This document shows, in pieces, positions 171 through 31,187 of a DNA stretch of 32,000 bases (position 1 is the stretch's first letter; every line of letters begins with the position of its first letter). The position numbers and the translations under genes are program-made. The notes beneath the pieces were generated by a model. It was not told the origin of the DNA, made no database searches, and saw only the letters and a list, made by a program, of their open reading frames with translations. Origin of the DNA: Candidatus Saccharimonadota bacterium (lineage in GTDB: Bacteria > Pseudomonadota > Gammaproteobacteria > Johnevansiales > Johnevansiaceae); the NCBI RefSeq assembly GCF_000300075.1, contig NC_018677.1:240001-272000 (forward strand). The letters run 5' to 3'.

Positions 171-299
171 TTTTTTCTAATTCTTTTTTTTTTATATTAT
201 GCTTTTAAGAGTATTATACACAAAAACAAATCATATTTTAATAATTCCGCTAATAAAGTTTTTTTTGTATTGTCTTTTAAATAATTATACAGATTGTAG

Positions 300-2826
300 T
301 TAGAATTTAAACTAACTAGGGTCTGATTTGTATTTATTCATTAAGTTGTAAAATTTTATTGTATTTATTACTTTTAATTTATAAGTGTTGATCGTTACTG
401 TGTTTTTTACTTCCTTTTTATAGTTTTATTTTTGTTTTGCTCTATGTTTTTTATTGCTGTTATTTTGTTGTTATTTCTGCTTCTTTTGTTTATCTTTTTA
501 TTTGTTATATTTATATTGTTATTGTTATTGTATTTGTAGTTGTAGTTGTAGTATCCGTTTGTTAGTATTTGTTTCATGTTATTATCTTGTTGATGTTATT
601 AGTTAGGTTCTTGGCTTTTTATTAGTTGTTGATATTTTAAAAGTTTTTAGTATTTGTTTAGTTCAATTGATTAAAATATTTGTTGTTTTGTTTAATTGAT
701 GTTTATAGTATTTTGTTTATAGGTGTTAGTTAAAGTTAAGATTAAAGTTTATATTAGTTTTTTTTGTTTTAAAACCTGTACAGTTATACAGTATTATAAA
801 GAATTTAAAAGTTTTTATTTTTAGCTGGTAGTTTATTTGTTATTAGTTTGTTATAAGAGGTTTTGTTATTAGTTTGTTTTATATTATTTAAAGATTAAAG
901 ATGTTTTGTTATTAGTTTAAAAGTTTTTAGATGTTTAATCTATATGTTATATAGTAAAAAAAATGTAGTTATTTTGTTGTTCTGTTATTAAATTTTAGAA
1001 GTTAGTAGTAGTAGTTATGTTGTTAGATATATGTAGTTATTTAAAAACTATTGTTGTTAAATATTAATTTGTATTAAGTTTATGTTATTTATTTATTTTT
1101 GTTTGTTTTATTATTCTGTTATTTGTTACTTAGTAGATAGTTGTAGTTATTTGTTTATTTGTAGTTAAAGGTTTAATGAACTATTGGTAGTTAGTTGTGT
1201 TTTTTTTTTTTTTTTTAAGACTTTGTTAAACAAAAAGACGCTAATATTTGTATTGTATAGACTAATGTATTTTGTTGTTGTTTGCTGTTGGCTGTTGATT
1301 ATTTATTTAATATGTGATGTGTAGTTTTTTATTGTTAGGTGGTTAAACTTATTTGTGCTAGTTGTTTATCTGTTGAATATTGATATGCATTTTTTTTTGT
1401 TTGTTTTGTAAACTGTTTACTGTTATTCTTGATATGTAATTGGTTTTATCTTTTGTAAGGTCTATTATGTATTTTTATATGTTTTTTAAAAAACAAATAA
1501 TTTATTGTTTGCTGTTGATTTTAATATATTTATTGTAAGGTTTTAGGTGTAGTGATATGCCTTTGTTTTTTTTTTTAGGTGTTGCTTTTTATGTGATGTT
1601 GTAAATTGTGTAATAAGTGAGATACTTTATCATATGCAATAATTTTGTATATTGTTATAATTTGTTAAAAAGATTTGTTGGGAGAGTTGAGATGGAAGAT
1701 GCTTAGTTAAAAGTTGTAAATTTGAATGTTGTAAGATACTGTGTTAAAAGTTTAATAATATTTTATATAAAGTGTAAGTTGTTTTGTTGTGAGCTGTGAG
1801 CGTTTAGTTGTTAATTTTTTAGAGTTTAGAGTTTTGTGTTGTTGTGGTTATTTGTTAGAGTTTTAAATCGTTGATTTTATCTGTTAGTTATTGTTTAGAG
1901 ATTTTGGGTTTTGAGGTTTCTTTTAAGATTTAAGCGGTTGCTTTTTTGAGTTTTTTTTTGTTAGTTATAGGTTATAATTGTTATTTAAATCTGTTAGTTA
2001 TTGTTTGTTATAGGTTATTTTTTAGTAATTAGAGTTTGCTTTAAAGTTTAAAGATTAAAGATTTTTGTTTTTTATCTGTTAGAGGTTTTTTTTAGATTTT
2101 AGATATTATCTGCTTGCGGTTATAGTTTTAATTTTAGATATTTAGTTATTAGAGGTTATCTGTTGATGTTAGAGGTTATGTTTTGTGGTTAGATTATTAG
2201 ATATTTTTTGTTTGTATGTTTTTTACTATTTACTTTGTAAATATTTTTGTTATATATTTAACAATATGTTGTATTTTTGAGTTTATATGTAGTATAGTAG
2301 TGTGTTGTATAAATAAGAAATAGTTTATTAGAGGTTTGTTTGTTAGATATTAGAAGTTAGAGTTTTTGTTTTTTAGAGGTTAGCTTAAAGAGTTTTGAGT
2401 TTTGATGTTTGTTGTTTAGATAAAAGATGTGTTTTTAATTAGATGTTAGATGTGATTTGTTTTTTATTAGATGTTTAATTATTAGAACTTTGTTTCTTGA
2501 TTCTTGATTTTAGAATTTAGAATTTAGAGGTTAGAGTTGTTAGGTTAGAGGTTTGTTTTTTAGATGTTTATTTAAAGATGTTAGTGGTTATGTTTTGTGG
2601 TTAGAGTTTTTTATAGTTGCTTGTTTTTTAGATTTTAGATTTTAGAGCTTAGTTATTAGATGTTGCTTAAATTAGATGTTAGATGAGATTGTTAGATGTG
2701 ATTTTTAGATGTTATATATTTGAATTGTTTTATTGTTTTATTATTTGAGTTTTTAAGTTAATATCTTAAGCACTTAAGAGTTTAAGATAAGAGTTGAATG
2801 TAAGGGTTTAATTTTTTAACATTGTA
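300..2826. other. C-depleted (G+T-rich on + strand) non-coding arm, the left arm of the gltP-metF spacer.
   Basis: Hand counts of 60-nt lines give G 12 / C 1 for 961-1020 and G 8 / C 1 for 1021-1080. There are no long ORFs. The arm has dense TTAGAGGTT / TTAGATGTT / ATCTGTTAG motifs, short tandem runs (e.g. 530-555 TTGTTA/TTGTAG units) and a T17 run at 1200-1216. Boundaries are +/-50 nt. Confidence 0.85.
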
Positions 2827-2849
2827 AAATAAAAAGCAGTCGTTAATAC

Positions 2850-3900
2850 ATAACAATATACTCCTCTAATATCAACAACCTACAACCTACAACCTACAAC
2901 CACAAACCACAAACCATCAAATAAACATCTAACCATCTTATTTAATCATATAACATAACATAACATAACATAATATAACTTATACAAAATCTAATTTACT
3001 TTCTTTTGTACAACTTATAACAACAAAAAGCCTTAAACATCTAACATAAAATAAAAGAAACATCTAATAACTAAGCTCTAAACAACAAAAAACAAATTTA
3101 AATAAGAAACAAACAACATAAAAACTCAAACTCTAAAACATAAAAACTACAAACTACAAACTCTAAACTCTAAACTCTAAAAAATAAACATCTAATAAAC
3201 AACATAAAATAGTATAGAGCATACAAAAGTATACCTATAAAAAAAGCAACCTCTAATAAATAATAAACAACCAAGAATAAATAATAAAAGCAAACATTTA
3301 ACTTCTAAAAAACAAAAACTCTAACATCCAATAAATAAACCTCTTAAAATTAAACCTACAACATCTACTTTAAAACACATCTTTTATCTTAATTTAATAA
3401 CATATAACAATTACATCTAAATAACTAATAAAAGAAACATCTAATAACTAACATCTAAAATCTAAAAAAACACCTCTAATAACTAACAGCTTTAATCTTT
3501 AAATCAACCTAAAACCTCTAACAAACAAATAACAGTTTTAAGCAACAAAACTCTAACAACATAAAAAAAACATCTAACAGATAAAAAATTAAAAACACCA
3601 AACATTAAACATTAAAACAACAAATAACCACAAAACATTAAACAAAACTCGATCCTCGAAAAAAAATTAAAACTAACAGCAAAAACTCTAAAAGAAAACT
3701 AAATTGTAACAAACAATAACTAACAGATTAAAGCAAACACCAAACAAAGCTCTAAACAAAACAACATCCAACAGATAAAAAAAAATAACAACAAAAACAC
3801 AAAATCAGAAAACATAACAACAGAACAGCTAATACATAAAAATAACAAAAAATACAAGAATAAAAAAAAAACAATAAAAACTAAAAGAATAATAAAAAGA
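2850..3900. other. G-depleted (A+C-rich on + strand) non-coding arm, the right arm of the gltP-metF spacer.
   Basis: Line 3061-3120 has G 2 / C 11 by hand count. The motifs are reverse complements of those in the left arm (AACCTCTAA, CATCTAA, CTAACAG). Microsatellites include (CAACCTA)3 and (CACAAAC)2 at about 2878-2915, (ACATA)5 at about 2950-2975, and (CAAACTA)/(CTCTAAA) runs at about 3150-3185. Confidence 0.85.
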
Positions 3901-3908
3901 AGAAAAAG

Positions 3909-4739
3909 ATGAAAAAAAATGAAGTAGAAATAAGTTTCGAGATGTTTCCACAAAAAGAGCATTATAAAACAAAAGTTTTTATAAAAAAAATAAAACAGTT
4001 ATATAAAAAAAAAGATATAAAATTTTGTTCAATTACATATGGAGCTGGAGGATCAAACAAAAAAAATACGCTTGAGATTATAAAAAATATAAAAAAACAA
4101 AAAATAGAATGCGTACCACATTTAGCTTGTATTACAACGAAAGAAAAAGACTTAATAAAAACTTTAAAAAGTTATAAAAAAATAGGGATAAAAAAAATAT
4201 TAGCACTAAGAGGTGACATCAAAACAAACACAAAAACAAAGTTTATAAATTCACTAGATCTATTAACATTAATAAAGAAAAATTTTTATAAAAACTTTGA
4301 AGTGATAGTAACAGCTTATCCAGAAATGCACCCCAACACTATAAGTTTTGAAAAAGAAGTTTGCTTTGTTATAAAAAAATTCATGTTTGGAGCCAATAAA
4401 GCAATTACACAATATTTTTATGATCCAGATTCATATTTTTATTTTGTAGAGAAAGTTAGAAAATATGGTGTTGAAAAGCATATAATTCCAGGCATAATGC
4501 CTATAAGTAATGTAAACAACTTAATAAATTTTTCAAAAAAATGTGGTGCTAATATTCCAAAATGGATATATAAAAAATTAGAATTTTGTAAAACTGACAA
4601 TGACATAGAACATATCGGTAACGATATTGTTATTAAATTATGTGAAACATTAATAAAAGGTGGTGCCCCAGGTTTACATTTTTATACACTAAATAAATTA
4701 GAACCAACATTAAATATTTTAAATTCATTAATAACATAA
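3909..4739 (+). CDS. metF: 5,10-methylenetetrahydrofolate reductase
   Basis: Full-length 276-aa ORF. Segments ISFEMFP, SITYGAGGS, PHLACI, LALRGD, TAYPEMHP, GANKAITQYFYD, IIPGIMPI and HFYTLN are colinear with E. coli MetF as I recall it. Confidence 0.9.
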   Translation: MKKNEVEISFEMFPQKEHYKTKVFIKKIKQLYKKKDIKFCSITYGAGGSNKKNTLEIIKNIKKQKIECVPHLACITTKEKDLIKTLKSYKKIGIKKILALRGDIKTNTKTKFINSLDLLTLIKKNFYKNFEVIVTAYPEMHPNTISFEKEVCFVIKKFMFGANKAITQYFYDPDSYFYFVEKVRKYGVEKHIIPGIMPISNVNNLINFSKKCGANIPKWIYKKLEFCKTDNDIEHIGNDIVIKLCETLIKGGAPGLHFYTLNKLEPTLNILNSLIT

Positions 4740-4740
4740 A

Positions 4741-6094
4741 TTATTTGCCTAAATAACGTAAAGCTTTTCCATTCATTATTTTTTTTTCTATTTGCTCCAA
4801 TGAAATACCTTTTGTTTCTGGTATTACAAATATAGTAAAAAAGATAAAAGCTATATTAGCTAATGCTAATAAACTAAAAGTAAGTGGTCCACCAATTTAA
4901 CTTAGTATAGTTAAAAAGAACGTTCCAAGTAACATATTAGCTAACCAATTGTCAATTGGCTATTGGCTATTGGCTATTGTTGAACAACTTATTCCAAATT
5001 ATCGTCCATACAATTGTTGTATTTCTGCACATAAAATCCAAATTATAGGGCCAGCTGACATAGCAAAACCAGCAACAAAGATTAATAACGAAAATATAGA
5101 TAAAAATTGTATAAAGTGTAATGTGCGTGTGTATAAAATTAAACTTAATAATGCAATTCCTATAGCCATAATAGTAAAACAAAAATATAAAATGGGTTTT
5201 ATACCTACTTTATCTACTAATATAATAGCGACTATTGTTGATAAAACGTTAACTAAACCAACAGTTAAAGTACTTAACAATTGCGGTTTAGTTCCTGTAA
5301 AACCATAAAATTCAAAAATTTTAGGAGAAAAGTATATCAAAACGTTCATGCCTGTCAATTGCTGTATAAATTGTAAAAAAATGCCTTTAAGTACAGATCT
5401 ACGAAAGTTAATATTTTTTTTAAAAGAAATTAAATCCAAAGCTTTTATTTTAAAAATTGATGCTGTTAAAATTTTCGTTAAGTTCATTATTAACTTCAAA
5501 CTTAGATGCTCTTAAATTGTGTAAAAGTTTTATGGCTTCACGGTTTTTATTTGTAGAAGCTAGCCATCTAGGGCTAGCAGGAATTAATAATATGCAAAAA
5601 AATAAAAGTATTGAAGGAACAATTAAGAGTTCTAACATACTTCTCCAATTTTGTAAATAACTTTAAATAAGTTTTGATATTAAAGCCAAAAGTGTTCACA
5701 TCGTAACCATAAATTGATATAAGGATATTGTCATTCCTCTAATACTTTTTTGAGTTATTTCTGCTAAATATAAAGGAGCAGTAAATGATGCCGAGCCCAC
5801 AGATTAACCAATTATTATACGAGCGATAATTGATATTTTTGTAGAATTTGCAAATACTGTTAGTACCGCACCTACAACATAATATGTTGAACTAAGTAAT
5901 AATGATCTTTTTATACCAGTTGTTTGTGATACAATACAATACAATACAATACAAGTATATAATGCGCAAATATAAGCTCCCCAAATCATAGAGCCTACTA
6001 TACAACCCGCAATGTTAGTAGATAAATTTAATACGTTTGTAAAAAAAGGTAAAGAACCTGAAATAACACCTATATCAATTCAAAAAAAATACAT
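4741..6094 (-). pseudogene. MFS sugar:H+ symporter (GalP/AraE/XylE-like), inactivated.
   Basis: The minus-strand translation is colinear with GalP (IDIGVISGSLPF, GIKRSLLL, TAPLYLAEI..IRG, PASPRWL, NFRRSV, QQLTGMNV, FAMSAGPIIWILCAEIQ, IDNWLANM, PETKGISLEQIE). It is interrupted by at least 7 in-frame stops: TGA at 6080-6082 and 5696-5698, TAA at 5804-5806, 5663-5665 and 4996-4998, plus a TAG and a TAA further 3'. There is one frameshift near 5450-5470. The N-terminal TM1 region is missing. Microsatellite insertions are (GGCTATT)3 at about 4958-4980 and (ACAAT)4+ at 5931-5955. Confidence 0.85.
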
Positions 6095-6119
6095 AATAAA
6101 AAATATACAACAAAAAAGA

Positions 6120-6480
6120 AAGAACAAAAGGTACGATTTTAGTAAAGTTGTTTGAAAAATTGGTTTAATGAGAAAAAAAAATGTAAATTAGTAGTGGAAA
6201 AGAAATGGTTGTATAAAAAAGTGAAAGTAAGGAGAGAAAGGTTAAGTTCATTGCTGTAATAGTAGAAGAAAAGAAGGTTGACAGTTTAGTTTTTAAAAGG
6301 TATAAGTTTTGTTACGGTAGTATGGTAGATATTATAGATTTTGTTTTCTATTTTAGTTTTAGCAATTATGTTGATTTTGTTTTTGTTAATGATTAATAGT
6401 TTCTGTTGTGGTTTAGTGGATTGCTCATTATGTCTTTTTGTGGACTTTTTGTTTTGTGGTTTATGTGTGAAAAAGTTTAA
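6120..6480. other. Short C-depleted (G+A/G+T-rich) spacer segment between the transporter pseudogene and zwf.
   Basis: By eye, 6120-6300 is purine-rich and 6300-6480 is G+T-rich, with very few C. The two ORFs in the track here (6286-6498 -, 6341-6556 +) are low-complexity. Confidence 0.6.
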
Positions 6481-6547
6481 CATAGAACTAATCTCCATAA
6501 TCTTTATTATTTTAGATAATTATAATATAATAATATTTATTTTTTTT

Positions 6548-6552
6548 AGGAG
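6548..6552 (+). promoter_or_regulatory. Shine-Dalgarno-like AGGAG upstream of zwf.
   Basis: AGGAG lies at 6548-6552. ATG codons follow at 6553, 6556 and 6562. Only 6562 has conventional spacing (9 nt), so the true zwf start may be 6562. Confidence 0.45.
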
Positions 6553-7932
6553 ATGATGTTTATGAAAATAATTGTAAAGAATATAACAAGTTTAAGTTTA
6601 ATCATGTTTGGGGCATTAGGAGATTTAGCATTAAGAAAATTATATAATTCACTATTTATATTATATAAAAAGAATATAATAAATAAAAAAATTAATATTT
6701 TATGTTTAGCACGAAAAGTTGAAACATTAAACACATTTAGATATACCATTTATAAAAGATTAATCAAAGCTAACTATATTAACAATAAAAGAGATTTAGT
6801 AAAACTTATTAACTTTATAAACTGTTTATATTATTTAAACATAGATTTTACTACTCTAACACATTTTAAATTCATAAAGAACCAGAACCAGAACCAGAAC
6901 CTAAAAAATAACTTATCAAAATTAGTTTACTTTGCAGTATCTAGCAACATATTTAAAATAATATGTAAATATCTGAATTTAAATAAACAGTTAACAAAAA
7001 CAGCTAAAATCATATTAGAAAAACCCATCGGCTGTAATTTAAAAAGTTCAATAAATATAAATAATTATATTAACAATATTTATTTTGAAAGATCTATTTT
7101 TCGTATAGATCATTATTTAGGAAAAAGACAAGTAAAAAATTTATTGTCTTTAAGATTTTTAAATCCTGTTTTTTATATGTTATGGAAGAAAAAATACATT
7201 ACACATATTGTTATCAATTTAGCAGAACATTTAGGTATTGAAGACAGGTGGGGATATTTTGATAAAACAGGCCAATTACGAGATATGGTACAAAATCATT
7301 TAATACAATTATTATCGATGATAACTATTTGCATACCAAAAACAAAACAAATTAGTGTAAAAAATATATATAAAGAAAAAATTAAAATATTAAAAGATTT
7401 AAATAATAGTTTTTTAACGGTTGATATAAAGTATGGGCAATACATTTCAAACAAATTTAAAAACAAAATTTTTAATGGATATCTTGAAGAAAAAAATTCA
7501 AATAAAAATTCATCAACGGAAACATTTATTTATATAAAAACAAAAATAAATAATTTTCATTGGTATGGTATTCCTTTTTTTTTAATGTCAGGAAAAAGGT
7601 TAAAACAAAAATTATCACAAATAAAAATATATTTAAAAAAAAATAGTTTGAATAATGACTTAAATAATAAATTGATTATTAATTTACAACCCAAAGAAGA
7701 TATAAATTTAAATAAGTTCAAAATAAAGCAAATGTCTTTAAATAAGAATAACTACTTAGATTCATATGATTTTTTAATTTTAGAGGTTATAAAAGGAAAA
7801 CAAGATTGGTTTGTTAGCAAAGAAGAAATAGATTATTCATGGAGGTGGATAGATAAAGTTATACATATTTGGAAACAAAAAAATATTCCTATATTTTATT
7901 ATAAATCTTTTACATGGGGTCCTATTGGTTAA
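6553..7932 (+). CDS. zwf: Glucose-6-phosphate 1-dehydrogenase
   Basis: 459-aa ORF with MFGALGDLALRKL (the GAxGDLAxRK dinucleotide motif), EKPIG, RIDHYLGK (active-site motif) and MVQNHLIQLL. It contains an in-frame (AACCAG)3.7 microsatellite at 6880-6901 encoding NQNQNQN. Confidence 0.9.
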   Translation: MMFMKIIVKNITSLSLIMFGALGDLALRKLYNSLFILYKKNIINKKINILCLARKVETLNTFRYTIYKRLIKANYINNKRDLVKLINFINCLYYLNIDFTTLTHFKFIKNQNQNQNLKNNLSKLVYFAVSSNIFKIICKYLNLNKQLTKTAKIILEKPIGCNLKSSININNYINNIYFERSIFRIDHYLGKRQVKNLLSLRFLNPVFYMLWKKKYITHIVINLAEHLGIEDRWGYFDKTGQLRDMVQNHLIQLLSMITICIPKTKQISVKNIYKEKIKILKDLNNSFLTVDIKYGQYISNKFKNKIFNGYLEEKNSNKNSSTETFIYIKTKINNFHWYGIPFFLMSGKRLKQKLSQIKIYLKKNSLNNDLNNKLIINLQPKEDINLNKFKIKQMSLNKNNYLDSYDFLILEVIKGKQDWFVSKEEIDYSWRWIDKVIHIWKQKNIPIFYYKSFTWGPIG

Positions 7933-8900: not shown

Positions 8901-8905
8901 ATATG

Positions 8906-9361
8906 TTATCCTTTTTGTTTGTTTGATAAATTATCTATTAATAACTTACCATTTAAATGATCTATCTCATGTTGTATACATTGTGAAAGTAAACCAGAAG
9001 CATTTATAATAAATTTATTACCATTTATATCTATTGCTTTTATAATAATATTAATAGATCTATAAATATATTCAAAATAATTAGGTATAGACAAGCACCC
9101 TTCTTTGACTTTTTTATATGTTGTACTTACATAGATATATTTTGGATTAATTATTATTAATGGTTGATTAGAATTTTTACTAATGTCCATAACAAAGATT
9201 CTGATATGTTTGTTTATTTGTGTAGCTGCTAATCCAATGCCGTTATGTGCGTACATAGTATTTAGCATTTTAAAGATTAAAGTTCTTATCTTATAATTTA
9301 TAAGTTTAATTGGTTTGGCTATAAATTTAAGACGTTTATCTGGGTATTTTAAAATATTCAT
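8906..9361 (-). CDS. def: Peptide deformylase
   Basis: All three PDF motifs are present: GIGLAATQ, EGCLSIP and QHEIDHLNG. I place the start at MNILKYPDKRL (ATG at 9359-9361) by alignment to E. coli Def. The 23-codon upstream extension in the ORF track (to 9430) would overlap aroE and has no homology. Confidence 0.88.
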   Translation of the reverse strand: MNILKYPDKRLKFIAKPIKLINYKIRTLIFKMLNTMYAHNGIGLAATQINKHIRIFVMDISKNSNQPLIIINPKYIYVSTTYKKVKEGCLSIPNYFEYIYRSINIIIKAIDINGNKFIINASGLLSQCIQHEIDHLNGKLLIDNLSNKQKG

Positions 9362-9385
9362 ATACTTTGATAGGTTATTAATAAA

Positions 9386-18960: not shown

Positions 18961-18963
18961 ACA

Positions 18964-18969: not shown

Positions 18970-18981
18970 TAAGGCGTAAAA

Positions 18982-20804: not shown

Positions 20805-20825
20805 AAAAACTTAACCATAATTTAT

Positions 20826-22208: not shown

Positions 22209-22240
22209 TGCTATAAATACAGTAACTAACTACCAGACTT

Positions 22241-23587: not shown

Positions 23588-23687
23588 TAATATCTCTTGT
23601 TTATATTTTTTTTTTTATATATTTTATATATATGTCCATACACTCATTCTATTATATAACATAATATATATTTATGGAAACAAAAAA

Positions 23688-25385
23688 ATGCGTATTAATT
23701 ATTGTGGTAAAGTCAATCAAACAATTTTAAATTCATATGTCAAGTTATACGGTTGGGTAAATAAAATACGAGATCATGGTGGCATTTTGTTTTTAGATTT
23801 ACGTGATATGTATGGTAGAACTCAATTAGTGATTGATTCTAAAAAGCTTGATTTTACAAATTTTGTGTTAGCAAAAAAACTCAAATCGGAATATATTATA
23901 AAAGTAATAGGTTTAATAAAATTACGACCTGTAAAAGATGGTTTTACAAATAAGATAGATATATTTGTAATAGAATTAAACTTATTAAGTAAATCCATAA
24001 AGTTACCTTTTAAGTTATATGCTAAAAAAAAAATTAAAGAAGAAATAAGATTTAAATTTCGTTATATAGATTTGCGGCAAAAGAAATATATAAAAAAAAT
24101 ACTTATTCGCTCTCAAATAATTCATAAAATTAGAAGTTTTTTAGATATTAATAAATTTATTGAAATCGAAACGCCTATATTAAGTAATATTACTGTTGAA
24201 GGAGCACGTACTTTTATTATACAAAGCCATAAACAAACTTTTGCTTTGCCTCAATCACCTCAAATATACAAACAAATTTTAATGTGTTCAGGTTTAGATA
24301 GATATTATCAAATTGCTAAATGTTTTAGAGATGAAGATTTACGGTCTGATAGACAACCAGAATTTACACAAATTGATATAGAAACTTCGTTTATGAATAA
24401 ACAAGCAATAATTAATGTAGTTGAAAAAATGATTAAATCATTATTTAAAGAACTTTTACATTTTACGTTCTCATCAGCTTTTAAAATAATCAAGTATACA
24501 GATGCTATCAACAAATATGGAACAGATAAACCTGATTTAAGAGTTCCTATTAAAATAACCGATATAGAAGATGTTATTCCTCAAAGTTTAACTTGTATTT
24601 TTCTTAATAAATTACAAAAACTAACAAGTCAATGCAATAGAATAGCTGCTATTAAACTCAAAGGTGGTGTTTGTTTATCTCTTAAACAGATTATTAAGTA
24701 TATTTCTTTTGTTAAATTATATGGTGCAAAAGGGTTAATATGGATTAAGGTTTACAATATTAATTTAGGCTTAAATGGTTTACAATCTCCTATATTAAAA
24801 CATATAACAGATGAAGTAATACACAACCTAAAAAAAAGATTGCATTTAAAAAATGGAGATCTAGTTTTTTGTTGTGCTGATACAATAAACATTGTAAATA
24901 CTTCTTTATCCGTGTTAATAACACAGATAGCAAACGATTTAAAACTTTATATCAAAGCTTGGGCTCCTATATGGGTTGTTAATTTTCCTTTGTTTAAACG
25001 TGATATTGTAGGAACGTTAACATCTTACCATCATCCATTTACTGCACCTACTTCTACGTTAGACGATATAATATATAATCCAGAAAAAGCTTTTGCTAAT
25101 TCTTTTGATTTAATAATAAATGGAATTGAATTAGGTGGTGGATCTATTCGTATAAATGATTATAAACTTCAAAAAATAATATTCAAACTATTAGGTTTAA
25201 CACAGAGAACCCTTAATAATAATTTTGGTTTCTTTTTAAAAGCTTTTAAATTTGGTGTACCTCCGCATGGTGGATTAGCTTTAGGTTTAGATCGTATAGT
25301 AATGTTACTTACAAAATCTGATAATATTAGAGATGTTATTGCTTTTCCTAAAACTAATAAGTTTATTTGTCCTTTATCTGTTTAA
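23688..25385 (+). CDS. aspS: Aspartyl-tRNA synthetase
   Basis: I place the start at MRINYCGKV (ATG 23688), which aligns with the E. coli AspRS N-terminus MRTEYCG. The 50 upstream codons in the track ORF are low-complexity and overlap mgtE. Class II motifs are present: FRDEDLRSDRQPEFTQID, HHPFTAP, GGGSIRI and GLALGLDR. Confidence 0.9.
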   Translation: MRINYCGKVNQTILNSYVKLYGWVNKIRDHGGILFLDLRDMYGRTQLVIDSKKLDFTNFVLAKKLKSEYIIKVIGLIKLRPVKDGFTNKIDIFVIELNLLSKSIKLPFKLYAKKKIKEEIRFKFRYIDLRQKKYIKKILIRSQIIHKIRSFLDINKFIEIETPILSNITVEGARTFIIQSHKQTFALPQSPQIYKQILMCSGLDRYYQIAKCFRDEDLRSDRQPEFTQIDIETSFMNKQAIINVVEKMIKSLFKELLHFTFSSAFKIIKYTDAINKYGTDKPDLRVPIKITDIEDVIPQSLTCIFLNKLQKLTSQCNRIAAIKLKGGVCLSLKQIIKYISFVKLYGAKGLIWIKVYNINLGLNGLQSPILKHITDEVIHNLKKRLHLKNGDLVFCCADTINIVNTSLSVLITQIANDLKLYIKAWAPIWVVNFPLFKRDIVGTLTSYHHPFTAPTSTLDDIIYNPEKAFANSFDLIINGIELGGGSIRINDYKLQKIIFKLLGLTQRTLNNNFGFFLKAFKFGVPPHGGLALGLDRIVMLLTKSDNIRDVIAFPKTNKFICPLSV

Positions 25386-26460
25386 CCTTTTGTTTTTTTT
25401 TACAATAATAGGCTTAATCTCACTTTTGCTCAAAATATAACTTGTACCTTTTTTGTTTTCTTTTTTATGCTTATGTGTTAATTGTTCTTTTTATTTTAGC
25501 TACTATATGTTTTTTGTTTTTTTTTAATTTGTGTTAGTTGTTTCTAGTTAGTTTAATTTTATGTTTTTCTTTTGTTTTTTCCATTCATTGTTATATTATT
25601 TAACTTATTTATTGTATTTGTTTGCTGTTATGTGTTATATGTACTTGCTTATATTTTTATTAGCTGGCATTTTGTTAGTTAAATATTTTTTGTATATAGA
25701 ATATATATTAGTAGTTTAAAACTGTTTTTGCTGTGTGTTATGTTCTTTTAATTAAAATGGTAAAATGTTTTAGATACTTTTTTGTTTTATGTTTCTTAAT
25801 TTGGTGTATGTTTTGTTATATAATGTTGAAATAAATTAAAAAGTGTTATAAATGTGTGTGTTGTTTGGATAATAATATGTTGATTGGTTATTATTGTGTG
25901 TTTGTAAAAAATACATGAGTTAGGTTTTAGATAGGTTGATTTGGTGTTTGTAAAAGTTGTGTAGTAGGTGGAATGTTATTAAAAAGGTAAAGAGAAGTTG
26001 TACTGAAAAAAAATAGTAGTTGTGTATTATATAAAGAAAAATAAAAAAATAGTAGTTGTGTATTATATAAAGAAAAATAAAAAAATAGTATGGAAAAAAA
26101 GGTAGTGTGTAATAGAAAAAAAATAGTTGTGTATTATGGAAAAGAAGTTAATGTTATGTAGAATGAGGAGTATAAAAAAGGTTTGCCGTAAATTGTTAAT
26201 AATAGGTGTAATGAGAAGGAAGTTATATAAAATAAAAATCAGATATGTGTAAGCTGTAGGTCTTATATTGAGTGTTGTGAAGTAAAAAGGATAGAGTGTT
26301 TGTTTTGTGTGCTGTGAAGTAAAACGATCTTACCATTAAAATGTATAAAAATTAGATTTAAATAAAGATGTGTGTTGTTAAACTAAAAGACGGTTGAGTT
26401 ATGTTGTGTTAAAAAAAAGCGAGTATTGTAAGCAGTTGTATATATATGTAGTTAAACGAT
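25386..26460. other. C-depleted non-coding spacer downstream of aspS.
   Basis: The spacer is T-rich with GCTGTTATGTG-type words to about 25850, then G+A/G+T-rich. Composition becomes mixed from about 26460 to the pal-like start. Confidence 0.75.
26005..26140. repeat. Tandem repeat, about 36-bp unit, 2 full copies plus 2 partial or diverged copies.
   Basis: ATAGTAGTTGTGTATTATATAAAGAAAAATAAAAAA starts at 26013 and 26049. A truncated copy lies at 26085 and a related AATAGTTGTGTATTATGG at about 26120. Confidence 0.85.
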
Positions 26461-26731
26461 AGACAATATTTAAAAAGGTTGTTTTGTAATATAAAAGGTA
26501 ATAGTGCTTGTTGAAAACAACAACTTTGAAATAGCATATACACAGTTGTGTAAAAGAACAAGTAGCCATAGATTAGTAATAAGTCAGTATTTACGATTAA
26601 ATATCTAAAAATACAATATAAAAACAGTAAAACGAAAATATTGGTACGTTTGTTATTAAAATTAAAATATATAAAATAGATTGTTAAAGAGGTAATATAA
26701 AGTACGATTATAGGTTATAAAAACATAAAAT

Positions 26732-27175
26732 ATGATAAAAAAATATATGCTTAAAAGGCTAATACTAGCAATTTCTTTATTACTGGTTTTAAAAAATAAT
26801 AATGTTATTTTAAACGAAATAAAATTAAACAAATTCTTTATTTTTAACAAAGCACCTTTTATTAAAACTATTTATTTTAATTATGATTTGTACTATTTTA
26901 GTAATAAGATAAATAATATTTTAAAGCAATATGTTATATATATACGTAACAATCCAAGTAAACAATTACTATTAAAAATCAATACCAATGTTTTAGGAAA
27001 TATAAAATATAATTTTATTTTAAATAAGTCTAGAATGAGTTTTATTGTAAACAATTTAGTTTTAAACGGAATACATAAAAACAACATTAAATATATTATC
27101 TGTGTAAAAAATAAAAAAGTTTATAATGAACTTAATACTCTTAACAACAATAAACTTATTGTTAATATATTGTAA
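26732..27175 (+). CDS. pal: OmpA-like domain protein, a probable degenerate peptidoglycan-associated lipoprotein homologue.
   Basis: 147-aa ORF. IYFNYDLYYFSNK..IRNNPSKQLLLK..G.IKYNFILNKSRMSFIVNNLVLNGIHKNNIKYI...NKLIVNIL is colinear with the E. coli Pal C-terminal domain ([67 protein letters not shown]). It has a hydrophobic N-terminus but no lipobox Cys. Confidence 0.55.
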   Translation: MIKKYMLKRLILAISLLLVLKNNNVILNEIKLNKFFIFNKAPFIKTIYFNYDLYYFSNKINNILKQYVIYIRNNPSKQLLLKINTNVLGNIKYNFILNKSRMSFIVNNLVLNGIHKNNIKYIICVKNKKVYNELNTLNNNKLIVNIL

Positions 27176-27193
27176 TTATACGCTTTTAGTGTT

Positions 27194-27281
27194 GGAGGGA
27201 TGGCAGAGAGGTTTATTGCATCGGTTTTGAAAGCCGACAAAAGTTTCTTACTTTTCCAGGGTTCAAATCCCTGTCCCTCCG
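27194..27281 (+). tRNA. tRNA-Ser (anticodon UGA), type II with long variable arm.
   Basis: Acceptor is GGAGGGA/TCCCTCC with discriminator G. Anticodon stem is TCGGT/GCCGA with loop TTTGAAA. Variable arm is AAAAG..CTTTT. T-arm is CAGGG-TTCAAAT-CCCTG. No CCA is encoded. Confidence 0.85.
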
Positions 27282-27323
27282 TTATCTATACACATATTTT
27301 TAATAAACACTATATGTAGCCTT

Positions 27324-27412
27324 GGAAGGCTGGCAGAGGGGTTTATTGCACTTGTTTCGAAAACAAGTAATTTAATACACAAAATTCGTGGGTTCGAACC
27401 CCACGCCTTCCA
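27324..27412 (+). tRNA. tRNA-Ser (anticodon CGA), type II with long variable arm.
   Basis: Acceptor is GGAAGGC/GCCTTCC with discriminator A. Anticodon stem is CTTGT/ACAAG with loop TTCGAAA. Variable arm is AATTT..AAATT. T-arm is GTGGG-TTCGAAC-CCCAC. The D-arm region differs by 1 nt from the neighbouring tRNA-Ser. Confidence 0.8.
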
Positions 27413-27439
27413 ACTTTAATACAAACACGTTTTTCTTTT

Positions 27440-28860
27440 TATAACTGTGTGTATATTTATTCTTCTTTATGTGGTTTATTATTATATAGTTTCTGATATT
27501 TGTGCTTTTTATGTTTTGATTTTATTTTATGATCTTTATCTCTTTTGTATTCTGTTTCTCCTCTCTTTGTATTATTTTATACAACATATACTATTTTTTA
27601 ACTTATTTATGTGTTATAGTTTATTCTTTTTGTGGTTTTTTGTTATCTGATATGTATTTAGTTACTTAATGTTGTACTAGTTGTTAAAAGATCATAGGTA
27701 AGTGTTACTTAAGTTACAAGATAAAAGATCATAGGTAATATTAAAATATATAAAAAAGAACATAATAGGTGTTGTGGTAAATATTTAAATGATTTATGTT
27801 GAATGGTTAATAGTTTGATGTTGGTGTTAAATATTAAAAAGTTTGTTTGTAAGGTTGATTTTTTTTGATGGTAGGTTTTTATATAAAAGAAGTTAAGAAG
27901 AGATAGTTTGTGTTAAATGGTTCTATTATAGATTGTGATATGTTATGTGTTTCAGTTTGTTTGTATTTACTGTATGTTATTAGTTGATAAATTCGTGTTA
28001 CCTGTTTAGTATATATATTATGTATTAGCTGTTTAGTAGTTATGTCTTGTGTGTTATGTGTTACTTTATAAGTTCTGTGTTATTTATGCTTTAAGATTTT
28101 GCTGTTATGCTTTGTTTAATTTAAATCTTTTTGTATTTTTATGATTAATGTTTGTTTTATGCTTTAAAAGTTGTGTGTTTGTTTTTTAGTGTTTATTTTG
28201 TAAATGTATTGTTTTTAAAAATATTTGTATTAGTCTTATGTTATGTTATGTTGTGTGTAGTGGTTGTAGTTAAGTAATTATGTTTTGTAGTTCTGTTTCA
28301 TGTGTGTTTAGTAGTTTTTTATTGTTAATGTTGTGTATTACTTATATTAGTTGTAATTTATAAAATTTATTGTGATATGTTTTGAGTAAATTGCTCTTAG
28401 GTTATGTGGTTTTGTAATACTAGTTATGGGTTGTAGTTTTGAGTTTATGTCTTGTTGTTTGTTAAAAAAAAAAGGGTGTATAACGATAAGTAAATTTTGT
28501 ATTAAAATTAAAAGTAAGTGTTTAGCTTATGCTATTATATGATTTTGAAATTGTAGTTATGTTTAATAATTAGTGTAAATTAGTTTTTGTTTGTTTTATA
28601 GAAAGTAGCTCTAATGCAAAATTTAAGTGTTTGTGGCTTAATTGTTATGCTGTATGAGAAAGTATAGCATTTACATAAATTAGTTGTGTTATAAAAGTAG
28701 GATGTATGTTATTAACGATAATGGGTTTATTTTTTAGAGGTTTATAATTTAATTATTTATATTTATTAAAGTTTGTTAAATTGTTGTATGTAGTAGAAAA
28801 GTAGCTAAAGTTTGTATGGAATTGGTAAAAAATTTACAGTTCAGTTCAGTTCAGTTAAAA
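27440..28860. other. T-rich, C-poor non-coding arm downstream of the tRNA-Ser pair.
   Basis: The first 200 nt or so are T-rich with both C and G. From about 27660 the arm is G+T-rich with very few C (GTTATG, TGTGTT and GCTTTAA words). It ends at a (CAGTT)4 microsatellite at 28837-28856. Confidence 0.8.
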
Positions 28861-28979
28861 AATAATAAGTTATAGAACACCACCATATATAAGCGTTAGG
28901 TTTTAAATTGTAAAAGTTTGTATTTACATATTAAGCTAATACGCCATATTTACAAAGGTTGTTGAAGGTATAGATCATT

Positions 28980-31130
28980 TATATTTAATAACGACAAATA
29001 CAAAACTCTATACTAAATAACCGTTATTTTAATTAAAGTGTATTCTACACAAAACTACATTTTATCAACAACAATATAATTTACACCTGATTCTTTGACC
29101 AGACAGACAATTAAGATCAACACTACAATCTCAGATAGCAATAAACCTCAAAAATACAATCTCAGCCAGCAAAAAACCTCAAACTTAAAACTCAATACAT
29201 ATATCTTTTTATTTTATCTCACATCAACATATAAGAAAATTTTTATCTCAAATAGTATATTTAATGGATATGTACAACAAATTTTTAAATTATACAGTTA
29301 ATTTTATATTCATATATAAAAAACTATTTCTTTATAATCATAAAAAGATATAAGTAAAACACAAACCTTTAACAGTTAATATCACATTTTACTACATCAC
29401 ACTTAACCTAAACTCATTCTTTACAACATTTTAACACATAACTCCTAATTATTTATTTTTTTAAAAAAACACACAATTAAAACATAAAAACTAATTTTTT
29501 ATCACTCTATCATACACCTTCCACCTTTCCTCTTTCACAACTCACAACAAAACATCTAACCAGTCATATATTACACCTTTCTTCTTTTGTCTTATAACCT
29601 TTTACATCTCCTTTCTCTTATCTACCTTTTACAACTCACCTAATATCCAATAACTACTAACAAGTAACAAGTAACAAAAACAAATCTCTAAAACCTGCTA
29701 CCCCCATTACTATCAACTACCTACAACTCACCTATTATCTTTAATACAACTCATCTAGTTTCTAAAATCAATTACTAACAAGTAACAACAACAAACCTCT
29801 TCTAACATCTATTCTCTAAAATCAATTACTAACCTCATCTAACAACAATTAACTCATCTATTCTCTAAATAACAACACATCCTTTTTTATAACTATTTTA
29901 AATTTTACAAAACTTATCTAACAACTTTTAAATCCTCTATAAATAATAACACATTTTCTTTATTTTCTTTTTCTATAACACATCTTTTAAGCAAACCTCT
30001 AATAAATAATTAATAACAAACAATCAACGCAACCATTAACAACTTATCCTCTAACCATTTACACAACTATCCTCTAATTAATAACAACTAATAAAAGCAA
30101 CCATTATCATCTTTTATATAACACTATTTTATCTAATTTAAGCTACTTCTAAACATTAACAACTTAACCTCTAACAAACTAACCTCTAATAACTAACAGA
30201 TAACCATTTTATTTATTACACCATCTAACATCTAACATCTAACCTAACACCTAACACCTCTAACAACTAACAAACAACAAACAACAAACTAACCTCTTTA
30301 ACATCTTTAAAGCAACCTCTAATAACTAAACCTCTTACCATCATCACATAACCTCTTAAAATACAAACTACAACCTTTATCTTCTACCAACATTCCTCTT
30401 TTTAACAAACATCCTACAAACTCCAACATCTAATCTCTTAAACCACCAACTATTCCCTTTTCTTCTTTTTTTTTACAACACTAATTATAATTATGTACAA
30501 CTTCTTTGTTATTAGTAAAATTTAACAACAATACAATTAAGAAACCATTATACAAAAAACAGTATTAATAGACAGAATACAACATCTAAAAAAAAAAATA
30601 ATACAAATATGTAAAAAAAAAATATCTAACAGATAAAAAAAAAGAACAACAAATATACAACCTCTAACAAAGCAACCTCAAATCAAAGAAATAAAGATCT
30701 AAAAAATATAAAAAAATACAACATATAATAAAAATATTTAAAACAAAAAATAAAGAGAATAACAATAATATAACAATTGAATAAAAAAAATAACAACATA
30801 ACAGATAATGTTAAAACACAAAAAGCAATAACGAAGAAAGCAAAACATAAAAAGAAAAAGTTTTAAAATAAAAAAAAAAAACAACAAGTATCTAAAAACA
30901 ACATAAAGAAACATTAAACAATAACGATTGTAGTTTAAGTAAAATAATAAAGAAAGAATATTATTCAAACAAAAAGTATTAACAAAACCAATAAATCAAA
31001 ACGAAACAAGAAATATAAATAAACACATTTTTAATAACTTGTACAACACATTTTAATAAATTACAAATATACATATCAGCAAACAGCTATAAAAAAAAAA
31101 CATATAAAACATAAAACACAATTTTAAAAA
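28980..31130. other. G-depleted non-coding arm upstream of lipA.
   Basis: Line 30181-30240 has G 1 / C 15 by hand count. Composition is C+T+A-rich at about 29500-29700 and A-rich after about 30500. Local direct repeats include ACAATCTCAG..AGCAA.AAACCTCAAA x2 at about 29125-29190, TCTAAAATCAATTACTAAC at about 29762 and about 29815, (CATCTAA)3 at about 30225-30245, and (CAAACAA)n at about 30270-30290. Confidence 0.85.
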
Positions 31131-31172
31131 GCATAAAAAATATAAATAAAAAAACAAAGACAAAAATAACAA

Positions 31173-31178
31173 GAGGTG
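31173..31178 (+). promoter_or_regulatory. Shine-Dalgarno GAGGTG for lipA.
   Basis: AAGAGGTGA at 31171-31179 lies 8-9 nt upstream of the ATG at 31188. Confidence 0.55.
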
Positions 31179-31187
31179 ATTTCCAGT

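Follow-up and report, generated by a model that had tools for sequence, protein, structure and literature searches.

Kilobase-long C-poor and G-poor arms in the expanded intergenic spacers of the whitefly symbiont Portiera: one material in opposite orientations

What could leave kilobases of intergenic DNA almost devoid of one base on one strand? The question arose from a 32,000-nucleotide stretch of bacterial DNA (the window, to which all coordinates refer), in which an initial annotation made from the letters alone had noticed about 14 kb of C-poor or G-poor spacer DNA. Spacers in the window total 15.5 kb, or 14.5 kb when the spacer containing an MFS-transporter pseudogene is left out, and recounting six 60-nt windows reproduced the earlier hand counts exactly (G12/C1, G11/C0 and G14/C0 in C-poor arms; G2/C11, G0/C12 and G1/C15 in G-poor arms). 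The absolute GC skew reached at least 0.6 in 99 of the 155 spacer bins of 100 nt, compared with 2 of 165 bins elsewhere. The longest C-free run was 185 nt, where composition predicts about 78 nt, and the longest G-free run was 208 nt (about 62 nt predicted).

The window is from Candidatus Portiera aleyrodidarum BT-B (CP003708.1, 100% identity across 21,362 nt), the symbiont to which the annotation had tentatively pointed. The homologous locus is also present in CP016304, CP007563, CP016343, CP016327 and JGI whole-genome contigs, and these spacers recur in six further complete genomes and several independent Logan assemblies, with small indels as the sole differences. Because of the identity to CP003708.1 and this recurrence in independent assemblies, the long spacers are genuine sequence, and the assembly artefact that the annotation had named as a possible refutation can be dismissed.

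The arms are the already published, oversized and short-repeat-rich intergenic regions of Portiera (Sloan & Moran 2012/2013; Santos-Garcia et al. 2012, 2015, 2020), with which they share a length of 1–4 kb, a spike of 7-bp repeats and 7-bp indel polymorphism. Large intergenic regions, the 7-bp tandem-repeat spike and 7-bp indels were described by Sloan & Moran 2013 (PMC3673631), together with the loss of dnaQ, dnaN, dnaX, holA, holB, mutL, ruvC and ssb; the published regions have been associated with the absence from the genome of genes for replication and repair, dnaQ among them (PMC3673631; Santos-Garcia 2020). The word ‘skew’ is absent from Sloan & Moran 2013, Santos-Garcia 2020 and Zhu 2019, the last of which merely predicted elements in intergenic spacers (Zhu et al. 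2019; PMC6699477). Santos-Garcia 2015 mentions skew solely to state that a clear genome-wide pattern is lost, and the 2026 papers on B. afer and B. tabaci give global GC skew alone (about +7% and +9%, respectively). We found no description in the Portiera literature of kilobase strand-locked C-poor or G-poor arms, no account of a T-to-A gradient across each spacer, and no statement that arms of opposite polarity share the same material; the annotation had likewise known of no description of the strand-locked architecture, and the searchable Portiera papers do not mention it.

Composition and repeat structure of the arms

Three spacers in the window are bipartite. The gltP(−)/metF(+) spacer consists of a C-poor arm, G+T-rich on the plus strand (171–2845; GC skew +0.49 to +0.81, AT skew −0.29 to −0.47), followed by a G-poor arm, A+C-rich on the plus strand (2846–3908; GC skew −0.34 to −0.75). 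Within the first arm, which has lag-7 autocorrelation and 7- and 13-nt indels between B and Q strains, the distal part (401–1700) and the proximal part (1701–2845) differ in motif family, the proximal part belonging to a TTAG-AKG heptamer family. The second arm is the reverse complement of this family, with its best family match to 1701–2845, and a polymorphic (ACAACCT)n array lies immediately right of the switch (2875–2905). The tRNA-Pro/tRNA-Arg spacer has a C-poor arm (15245–16950; GC skew +0.72 to +0.84) containing a TGTTATG/TTGCTGTTA motif family and repeat families D6 and D17, and its sequence becomes weakly G-poor on the right (16951–17505; GC skew −0.2 to +0.17). In the tRNA-Ser/lipA spacer, a C-poor arm with a weak lag-7 signal (27415–28860; GC skew +0.62 to +0.71) is separated by 120 nt of ordinary composition, in which both G and C are present (28861–28980), from a G-poor arm (28981–31187; GC skew −0.75 to −0.91) with G-free runs of 208, 187 and 182 nt and, from about 30000 onwards, the TTAG-AKG family in reverse complement. 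The sharp polarity switches at about 2830–2850, about 16950 and 28860–28980 are visible in the sequence, at the places that the annotation had marked.

The remaining spacers have other arrangements. Between glnS(+) and cysS(+), one C-poor arm reaches the cysS start (11811–13804; GC skew up to +0.86); it contains a tandem array of four 34-nt units (13100–13238, found by TRF) and differs between strains by indels of 7, 27 and 34 nt. The tRNA-His/clpP spacer is a G-poor arm (17655–19030; GC skew down to −0.83) that is G-poor right from the tRNA 3′ end, as noticed earlier; (CCACTAA)7 begins there (17656–17704) and extends the tRNA terminus ...CCACCA. The aspS(+)/orf147(+) spacer (25386–26731) runs from a T-rich trailer through a C-poor arm (25600–26400) to an A-rich leader and includes a perfect 36-nt repeat of 2.3 copies (26007–26090). 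In the tally of arm limits, the C-poor parts of the gltP/metF and aspS/orf147 spacers are given as 401–2845 and 25386–26400. A short C-poor stretch between the MFS pseudogene and zwf (6121–6480; C 0–4 and G 11–17 per 60 nt) is purine-rich (A+G) in its first part and G+T-rich in its second, and has the same polarity in the sister lineage.

The C-poor and G-poor arms are one material in opposite orientations. Base frequencies in the G+T-rich arms (A.287, C.041, G.195, T.477) are nearly the same as those of the reverse-complemented A+C-rich arms (A.285, C.046, G.182, T.487). Five arms, with both polarities represented, share one unit family (TTAGATG, TTAGAGT, TTAGTGG, TTAGTTG and similar), and TTTTATCTGTTAG occurs 9 times versus 0.35 expected, following arm polarity every time. 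GC skew and AT skew are anticorrelated across spacers (r = −0.54), with 181 of the 220 windows in which both skews are non-zero (225 windows in all) being of G+T or A+C type.

Comparison with neutral four-fold degenerate sites identified which base is anomalous. Because C/(C+A) in the arms (0.09–0.14) matches the neutral four-fold value of 0.12, C has not been erased; G/(G+T) is 0.22–0.33 versus 0.12 at neutral sites, such that the anomaly is an approximately 2.4-fold excess of G. In the MFS and clpX pseudogenes G and C are about equally frequent and, as the annotation had argued, pseudogene decay is not the source of the arms. In an Rfam search for known RNA families in the spacers, five tRNAs were the sole matches to reach the gathering thresholds.

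Autocorrelation at lags of 7, 14 and 21 was found in the main arms and was absent from genes; in weaker arms lag 7 was the highest or joint-highest lag, except in the aspS/orf147 arm. TRF periods in the window were 7, 14, 21, 28 and 35. Pairs of heptamers differing at no more than one position cover 9–25% of main arms versus 0–4% of genes, the former being the only part of an arm that is recognisable as tandem sequence. Since the lag-7 signal is weak or absent in the ybeY/trpB (3 kb), proS/aroQ and aspS/orf147 arms, an origin from repeats is presumed for these. Differences between B and Q arms are mostly indels (7, 14, 13, 29 and 34 nt), and between-strain variation is mainly in multiples of 7 nt. 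These alignments suggest that arms of Portiera from B. tabaci are still being remodelled by slippage.

Arm order, the AT gradient and gene ends

The survey was extended to 51 kb containing 11 spacers. It had been claimed that the C-poor arm always comes first, regardless of the orientation of flanking genes. Independence from gene orientation was borne out, and the order itself held in all three bipartite spacers and in two orthologous spacers of the sister lineage; however, 8 of the 11 spacers have a single polarity, two of these being G-poor, and given two opposite arms per spacer the C-poor-first order in three spacers has a chance of 1 in 8. The claimed drift of AT skew from T-rich to A-rich did not hold in every arm but held for whole spacers, in which Spearman's rho between position and AT skew was positive in 9 of 11. 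The T-rich to A-rich gradient is thus a more general rule than the C-poor-first order. It is also seen at gene ends, where the outward-reading strand was T-rich at 17 of 22 (9 versus 0 among strong cases). GC skew departs from the AT gradient near genes: 6121–6300 and 26000–26700 are A+G-rich, and the sequence right after proS and lipA is C+T-rich.

A head-to-head arrangement could have been forced if bipartite spacers were large inverted duplications, primed by fold-back at a break, or arrays grown on 3′ ends and joined like fused telomeres. The geometry fits, in that the G+T strand runs 5′ to 3′ toward a sharp switch from either side. In addition, the two best inverted matches of the gltP/metF spacer are centred at 2834–2866, near its switch, and the most indel-polymorphic arrays lie just to the right (2873–2950). 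Nevertheless, we give this explanation hardly any credence. Reverse-complement 10-mer matches per available diagonal were flat across centres, and the mirror-collinear chain scored 373 versus 337 for the anti-collinear chain and 338–435 for arms of other spacers; these diagonal and chain-score comparisons gave no evidence of end addition or of mirror homology about the switch, and a large palindrome was rejected. Spacers 3 and 5 are nearly without inter-arm matches, and most spacers have a single arm. The arms do resemble G/T-rich satellite or telomere-like arrays in their 5–7-nt units of T, G and A, C-free strand and (G+T)n–(A+C)n head-to-head order, but they lie inside a circular bacterial chromosome and their units are highly degenerate.

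Gene ends also bear on whether the composition is selected. No intrinsic terminator had been noticed after any gene; in 9001–29000 we found four terminator-like hairpins versus 2.7 expected by chance, none of them at a gene end. In a terminator-less genome, arms might shield genes against transcription and translation that run on, with G-free leaders lacking ATG, GTG, TTG and Shine–Dalgarno sequences and resembling the C-rich, G-poor RNA on which Rho loads, and with C-free trailers full of stop codons. This proposal is consistent with the A-rich leaders and T-rich trailers at most gene ends, and also with the G-poor arms that lie immediately 5′ of metF, clpP and lipA and, on the genes' own sense strand, of gltP and ybeY. 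Conversely, start-rich C-poor arms abut the start codons of cysS, trpB and sister-lineage metF, the kilobase lengths are well beyond such a need, and turnover has left arm sequences with hardly any conservation by position from one lineage to another. Symbionts of this type are also expected to experience weak selection, and we consider this explanation highly improbable.

Substitution spectrum and strand asymmetry

The initial annotation had attributed the arms to pervasive convergent transcription, with 3′ read-through and divergent 5′ antisense transcription exposing a non-template strand that becomes G+T-rich by deamination (C>T, perhaps A>G). Part of the evidence agrees. The shift from neutral sites has the sign expected of deamination on the G+T strand (C and A down, T and G up), terminators are no more frequent than chance, and inspection of the arm beyond the T-rich trailer showed a G+T-rich strand continuing from the gene 3′ end in 7 of 10 cases. 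Co-directional gene pairs track gene direction, glnS/cysS and aspS/orf147 being C-poor on the plus strand and alaS(−)/leuS(−) being G-poor on it in two lineages.

Substitutions polarised among four B. tabaci Portiera lineages (58 in arms, 33 in genes) argue against deamination. Transversions accounted for 51 of 58 in arms (about 88%) and 32 of 33 in genes, leaving 7 transitions in arms (C>T 1, A>G 1) and 1 in genes. Four-fold sites were scored in 11 transcribed genes: G (6.5%) and C (5.5%) were nearly equal there, the sense strand had a GC skew of just +0.08 to +0.09 with an AT skew of −0.07 to −0.09, and cysS, although it sits between two arms of skew +0.8, had G8/C7. The geometry also failed. 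The outward-reading strand was G-rich at 12 of 22 gene-end junctions (p = 0.83) and, with the first 400 nt scored, at 5 of 10 3′ ends; C-poor arms meet cysS and trpB at their 5′ ends, and a G-poor arm lies directly 3′ of tRNA-His. Convergent pairs should be the clearest bipartite cases, yet proS/aroQ and lipA/lysC have a C-poor arm alone, which reaches the 3′ end of the minus-strand gene. With no excess of C>T or A>G and such small silent-site skew, transcription-associated deamination was rejected as a match, and transcription as the source of arm polarity is very unlikely. Animal mitochondrial DNA is similar in having one G+T-rich strand nearly C-free for kilobases. Its asymmetry, due to deamination of a single-stranded strand, proceeds by transitions (C>T, A>G) visible at four-fold sites, whereas transitions are about 10% of arm substitutions and four-fold sites are unskewed.

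The G+T-rich strand could instead mark the leading (or lagging) strand, through biased substitution or fork-side-dependent expansion of a structure-prone G+T strand, with G-poor arms as local exceptions or inversions. The usual leading-strand signature combines G>C with T>A, and on the deposited strand C-poor arms total 14.1 kb versus 6.6 kb of G-poor arms in the 51 kb. Polarity is also kept between lineages despite turnover and a different repeat period. Net GC skew on the deposited strand is +8.7 to +9.1% in all 11 B. tabaci Portiera genomes (PMC13637331), and this value of about +9% suggests a chromosome-wide bias that the slippage model described below does not predict. However, skew on the plus strand is absent at four-fold sites, where plus-strand genes give +0.09 and minus-strand genes −0.08, and polarity alternates within a few kilobases, from C-poor to G-poor (alaS/leuS) to C-poor for 3 kb (ybeY/trpB). 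At least seven sign changes occur in 51 kb, some inside single spacers, instead of being confined to origin and terminus, and three spacers switch internally. Because the gltP–metF–MFS–zwf synteny is ancestral, inversion cannot account for the G-poor arm of the gltP/metF spacer. Replication-associated skew was therefore rejected as a match, and a replication-linked asymmetry is an unlikely explanation. Replication skew in typical genomes is roughly 0.05–0.2 and, as in the arms, the G-rich strand is also T-rich; the arms differ in their magnitude of 0.6–1.0, their many switches in 50 kb, their confinement to non-coding repeats and the unskewed neighbouring four-fold sites.

The 58 arm substitutions were dominated by T>G/A>C (16), G>T/C>A (17) and T>A/A>T (18). 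C>A per C (0.025) exceeded G>T per G (0.0059; p = 0.003), and G was gained 13 times and lost 12 times, where the neutral expectation is 26% gains (p = 0.005). The equilibrium GC skew of the rate matrix was +0.52, with a bootstrap interval of −0.10 to 0.90 at this small sample. Mutator spectra of the 8-oxoguanine type (mutT, mutY, mutM) consist of A:T>C:G and G:C>T:A; both classes, together with A:T>T:A, dominate the arms and yield a keto/amino coupling. The presence of A:T>T:A, which is no 8-oxoguanine signature, sets the arm spectrum apart. By analogy, 8-oxoguanine may serve as a lead.

Lineage comparison and a slippage model

Gaps that are long in the window are nearly absent from S. simplex Portiera: 1994 versus 15 nt for glnS/cysS, 2261 versus 2 nt for tRNA-Pro/tRNA-Arg and 1376 versus 9 nt for tRNA-His/clpP. 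As the tRNA-His-to-clpP distance is 24 nt in the sister lineage, this arm grew inside the B. tabaci lineage. The orthologous tRNA-Pro/tRNA-Arg spacer of the sister lineage retains the order of C-poor and then G-poor, whereas that of gltP/metF is C-poor throughout and lacks the counterpart of the G-poor arm. In a comparison of orthologous junctions of the kind that the annotation had proposed, the sister lineage agreed in polarity at 7 of 8 and S. simplex Portiera at each of the two observed, one of the conserved junctions being the 3′ side of aspS, which agrees in both.

Our favoured explanation, which we regard as on balance probable, is orientation-preserving slippage of short C-free units, with skew maintained by a spectrum of G↔T and C↔A transversions. 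The annotation had offered slippage or duplication of base-skewed seeds as its alternative, and the evidence favours this over its transcription hypothesis. Very short units (7 nt in symbionts of Bemisia, 5 nt in that of Singhiella), containing only T, G and A on one strand, would give rise to the spacers by slippage during replication and by local duplication. Because slippage and tandem duplication preserve unit orientation, the product would be C-poor for kilobases, and G-poor where the material was inverted. The nearly all-transversion spectrum (T↔G, T↔A, C>A) would turn G and T into each other, and likewise C and A, so that a T-rich strand would turn G-rich and an A-rich strand C-rich; C could not be derived from G, nor in practice from T. 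Arms may have been seeded from T-rich trailers and A-rich leaders at gene flanks, giving each spacer its course from T-rich beside the left-hand gene to A-rich beside the right-hand gene; combined with the G–T and C–A link, this gradient would produce the C-poor then G-poor order wherever both ends expanded. A possible case of local seeding is the (CCACTAA)7 array that prolongs the CCACCA end of tRNA-His, in the spacer that is so short in the sister lineage. A causal role of the lost replication and repair genes is plausible.

The seed idea has to contend with GC skew near genes, which often ignores the AT gradient. Symmetric transversions with the observed T/A ratio predict a G/C of about 1.7 compared with the observed 4.4, and the G excess needs an additional force. 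Turnover of repeat units by concerted evolution is the likeliest means by which G would be kept about 2.4-fold above neutral. S. simplex Portiera arms have a period of 5 and yet the same composition as Bemisia arms, and two separate unit lengths with the same G+T composition hint at an underlying strand-asymmetric process instead of chance seeds. The earlier interpretation is thus partly supported, and the one-sided base composition of Portiera spacers fits better with repeat slippage together with an unusual mutation pattern than with transcription damage.

Skewed arms in the oversized spacers of Portiera

The window, whose G+C content is 24%, is 100% identical across 21.4 kb to CP003708.1, the genome of Candidatus Portiera aleyrodidarum BT-B, the obligate symbiont of Bemisia tabaci MEAM1. 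The initial annotation had guessed at Portiera, and the guess was right. Abnormally large intergenic regions, a 7-bp tandem-repeat spike and 7-bp indels were already described for the BT-B genome, as was the loss of dnaQ, dnaN, dnaX, holA, holB, mutL, ruvC and ssb (Sloan & Moran 2013, PMC3673631; Santos-Garcia 2015, 2020). The spacers considered here belong to this published class of oversized repetitive spacers, in a published genome. Where skew is treated in the searchable Portiera papers, they either note that a clear GC-skew pattern has been lost genome-wide or give global values only (about +7% in B. afer Portiera and about +9% in B. tabaci Portiera); the word does not occur in Sloan & Moran 2013, Santos-Garcia 2020 or Zhu 2019. 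GC skew is reported to be +8.7 to +9.1% in all 11 B. tabaci Portiera genomes and negative in other Portiera (PMC13637331). We found no description of local strand-locked composition in the searchable Portiera genome literature, and what appears to be new here is the strand-locked architecture, its composition rules, a gradient across the spacers and a substitution spectrum made up almost entirely of transversions.

The arms are C-poor (G+T-rich) or G-poor (A+C-rich) on the plus strand. An absolute GC skew of at least 0.6 was found in 99 of the 155 100-nt bins of seven long spacers, compared with 2 of the remaining 165 bins. The longest C-free run was 185 nt and the longest G-free run was 208 nt, whereas composition alone predicted runs of about 78 and 62 nt, respectively. 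All six base counts per 60 nt that had been made by hand were exact on recount, and inspection of the sequence confirmed sharp polarity switches from C-poor to G-poor DNA at about 2830-2850, about 16950 and 28860-28980. The skewed arms are a real and striking feature. Rfam matches in the window were limited to five tRNAs, and a promoter scan returned 118 sites in the sequence and 166 in shuffles. In 9001-29000, terminator-like hairpins did not exceed their frequency in shuffles, and there was none downstream of a gene, in agreement with the earlier failure to see terminators.

The spacers of the window recur in six other complete genomes and in Logan assemblies made independently from public runs, and differ among them by only a few small indels; therefore they are not an assembly artefact, an outcome that would have undone the original proposal. 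In one MED genome (L014, CP007563.1), more than 30 differences fall within 70 nt at window positions 1084-1156, where four other assemblies are concordant. A local fault in assembly or sequencing, or the replacement of a repeat block, probably accounts for this cluster.

Repeat units and slippage

The base composition of the C-poor arms (A.287, C.041, G.195, T.477) is nearly the same as that of the reverse-complemented G-poor arms (A.285, C.046, G.182, T.487). Moreover, one family of units, which in the G+T orientation includes TTAGATG, TTAGAGT, TTAGTGG, TTAGTTG and similar sequences, is present in five arms of both polarities. The C-poor and G-poor arms are thus one kind of DNA in two orientations. 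The C-containing 13-mer TTTTATCTGTTAG, allowing at most one mismatch, was found in 9 copies where 0.35 were expected, always in the orientation of its arm: at 1875, 2070, 13324, 13371 and 15301 on the plus strand, and at 3574, 3720, 3768 and 30626 on the minus strand.

Base identity was in excess at lags of 7, 14 and 21 nt in the arms of the window and in no gene. Among the weaker arms, some of which lie outside the window, lag 7 was also top or joint-top, with the exception of the aspS/orf147 arm. Adjacent heptamers with no more than one mismatch cover 9-25% of the main arms and 0-4% of genes. The local strength of period 7, considered as an age gradient, was patchy and had no consistent relation to switches or gene ends. 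Differences between the arms of the B (MEAM1) and Q (MED) strains are chiefly indels of 7, 14, 13, 29 and 34 nt. These repeat units and indels support the alternative that had been raised alongside the deamination hypothesis, namely orientation-preserving slippage or duplication of base-skewed seeds. Slippage is also active in coding and pseudogene DNA, since an in-frame (AGAACC)4 repeat in zwf (6878-6901) differs by 12 nt between the B and Q strains and (ATTGGCT)3.6 in the decaying MFS pseudogene (4955-4979) is length-polymorphic between them.

The tRNA-His/clpP spacer is 24 nt long in a sister Portiera lineage and 9 nt long in the symbiont of Singhiella simplex. In the window, the G-poor arm of this spacer opens with (CCACTAA)7 at 17656-17704, which begins at the final bases of tRNA-His and repeats the terminal CCACCA of the tRNA, as if this microsatellite had been seeded from the tRNA 3′ end. 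Because the spacer is short in the other lineages and the repeat continues the tRNA, its growth took place in the B. tabaci lineage and started from local sequence.

The sister lineage (ENA ERZ28624604 scaffold_17, 84.6 kb; also SRR10613586) shares the gene order of B. tabaci Portiera, with proteins 78-80% identical to their counterparts in the window. Its spacers are of intermediate size (1-2.4 kb), have a period of 7 and are strand-locked, so that this lineage may be a useful intermediate stage. Polarity was the same at 7 of 8 orthologous junctions, and only short gene-proximal stretches of the orthologous spacers could be aligned with B. tabaci. In B. tabaci Portiera clpP is present as two ORFs and clpX as a remnant (window 19031-20825); both genes are intact in the sister lineage (L162 5218-7122), as is the MFS transporter (578 aa, L012). 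A tRNA-Ser(gct) on the minus strand ends the lipA/lysC spacer of the sister lineage (L162 16923-17006). The C-poor arms of S. simplex Portiera (L001 1-1700 and 19750-21590), in which GC skew reaches +0.98, have a strong period of 5 (lags 5, 10, 15 and 20) rather than 7, but their composition (T 53%, G 23-26%, A 19-21%, C 2-3%) is the same as that of the B. tabaci arms.

Substitution spectrum and the deamination hypothesis

The initial annotation had proposed that the arms arose by C-to-T deamination under convergent transcription, with unterminated read-through. Convergent gene pairs, which read-through predicted to be two-armed, had one arm only. Four-fold degenerate sites of 11 genes contained 6.5% G and 5.5% C, and their sense-strand GC skew was +0.09 in plus-strand genes and +0.08 in minus-strand genes. 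In cysS, four-fold sites were G8/C7, although the gene is flanked by two arms with a skew of about +0.8. As cysS is transcribed and replicated together with these arms, a regional point-mutation bias, whether from transcription or from replication, should have been apparent there. In three lineages, all arms had a C/(C+A) of 0.09-0.14, which matches the four-fold value of 0.12, and erasure of C by mutation was rejected on this basis. G/(G+T) was 0.22-0.33 in the arms and 0.12 at four-fold sites. The arms are therefore a T-rich strand with a neutral level of C and a 2.4-fold excess of G. Enrichment of G alone does not exclude deamination because A>G changes could also enrich G; for this reason, the case against deamination rests on the substitution spectrum and not on composition.

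Substitutions were polarised by parsimony in an alignment of MEAM1, MED, China 1 (CP016343) and Asia II 3 (CP016327). Transversions accounted for 51 of 58 polarised changes in the arms, with one C>T and one A>G, and for 32 of 33 in genes. A separate comparison of B and Q in the left half yielded some 14 clean substitutions, every one a transversion. When polarised and unpolarised changes among B. tabaci Portiera lineages were combined (window 13805-35385 against sequences L023, L024 and L164-L166; window 1-14739 against L014-L017), about 90% were transversions (48 of 52 in genes and 101 of 116 in arms), split roughly evenly among A:T>T:A, A:T>C:G and G:C>T:A. A full-text literature search returned nothing relevant on transversion bias in Portiera. 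Judged from these alignments, deamination is not what changes the arm DNA; four-fold sites, C/(C+A) and the spectrum all speak against the transcription-coupled hypothesis.

In the G+T orientation, the arm changes were T>G 12, G>T 8, T>A 14, A>T 4, C>A 9, A>C 4 and G>A 4, a spectrum that interconverts G with T and C with A. As a consequence, the G-rich strand is also the T-rich strand: GC skew and AT skew were correlated (r = -0.54), and the G+T or A+C type made up 181 of the 220 spacer windows with non-zero values of both skews (225 windows in total). C>A per C (0.025) exceeded G>T per G (0.0059) in the arms (p = 0.003), indicating that the process in the arms is not strand-symmetric. G was gained 13 times and lost 12 times, a balance where 26% gains would be expected from the four-fold equilibrium (p = 0.005), and the rate matrix gave an equilibrium GC skew of +0.52 (interval -0.10 to 0.90) compared with +0.59 observed at aligned arm sites. 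The skew thus seems to be kept up and not to be decaying. Exactly this pattern would result if variant units were replaced by neighboring ones during slippage, but it may instead reflect a true strand-asymmetric mutation process. With moderate confidence, we favor slippage combined with transversion as the origin of the arms.

Arm order, the T-to-A gradient and strand asymmetry

By extending the window on both sides we obtained 51 kb of B. tabaci sequence (window coordinates -6091 to 45345), which we compared with about 46 kb from the sister lineage and 21.6 kb from S. simplex Portiera. On the plus strand, the proS/aroQ, MFS/zwf, glnS/cysS, aspS/orf147, lipA/lysC and ybeY/trpB (3 kb) spacers of B. 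tabaci are C-poor, the tRNA-His/clpP and alaS/leuS spacers are G-poor, and the gltP/metF, tRNA-Pro/tRNA-Arg and tRNA-Ser/lipA spacers are C-poor and then G-poor. Hence the claim that the C-poor arm always comes first held for all three bipartite spacers but not as a general rule, as 8 of the 11 spacers have a single polarity. The same order was found in the sister lineage at tRNA-Pro/tRNA-Arg and, weakly, at tRNA-Ser/lipA, its gltP/metF spacer being without a G-poor arm; a kilobase-scale reverse order was not seen in the sequence examined. Since three of three would agree by chance once in eight, the rule is unproven. The outward-reading strand was G-rich at 12 of 22 gene-end junctions, and polarity is therefore not tied to gene ends. 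We rejected a large inverted duplication, as BLAST of left against right arms, reverse-complement 10-mer centers and collinear-chain scores relative to controls gave no mirror collinearity. Inversion as the source of the first G-poor arm was also rejected, because the order and orientation of gltP-metF-MFS-zwf are ancestral.

The drift in AT skew, T-rich on the left and A-rich on the right, which had been described within arms, was found in 9 of 11 spacers and failed in the remaining two. The outward-reading strand was T-rich at 17 of 22 gene ends, with nine strong cases for and none against, making the T-to-A gradient a more general regularity than the C-poor-first order. Because being T-rich on leaving a gene reads alike on either strand, the left-to-right order is independent of the orientations of the flanking genes. 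Together with the G-T and C-A coupling, the gradient would give C-poor and then G-poor DNA wherever both ends of a spacer had expanded. We infer that T-rich trailers and A-rich leaders provided the seeds of the arms. Immediately past a stop codon or a tRNA 3′ end, T makes up 60-70% of the first 60-250 nt, in which some C remains (window 11811-11870, 15265-15480, 25386-25620 and 27415-27650; L014 3272-3420). A C+T-rich stretch after proS and lipA precedes the onset of the C-poor arm.

We kept as a rival the possibility that a replication-linked or other chromosome-wide asymmetry shapes the arms. The main grounds for keeping it are that two repeat systems, of 5 and 7 nt, converge on one composition, and that net GC skew is about +9% in all B. 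tabaci Portiera genomes (PMC13637331). C-poor arms total 14.1 kb and G-poor arms 6.6 kb in the 51 kb, a 2:1 excess that can be taken as a sign of strand preference; arm polarity is not uniform along this stretch. A steady state in which G gains equal losses and C>A is about four-fold faster than G>T is compatible with such an asymmetry, and neither this spectrum nor the 5-nt and 7-nt convergence is explained by chance seeds. Nevertheless, we consider it unlikely that the arms record a self-sustaining strand asymmetry confined to non-coding repeat DNA, with a chromosome-wide strand preference. One example would be fork-direction-dependent repeat expansion by a replisome that has lost proofreading, clamp, clamp loader and SSB, with replication that may be unidirectional or very unequal. 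If it were true, the way in which this degenerate chromosome is copied could be read from arm polarity.

The excess of C-poor arms is a likely cause of the positive genome-wide GC skew of B. tabaci Portiera. Our results bear on why the Portiera lineages that lack dnaQ grew large intergenic regions, unlike most other ancient insect symbionts; the published account of this growth goes no further than that microsatellites proliferated. The process that made this DNA has to account for strand-locked G+T or A+C material of almost constant composition, for C at its neutral level with an excess in G only, for substitutions in the lineage that are almost all transversions, and for the T-to-A gradient across spacers. 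If polarity tracks replication or transcription genome-wide, the arms would be a free readout of it in an unculturable organism.
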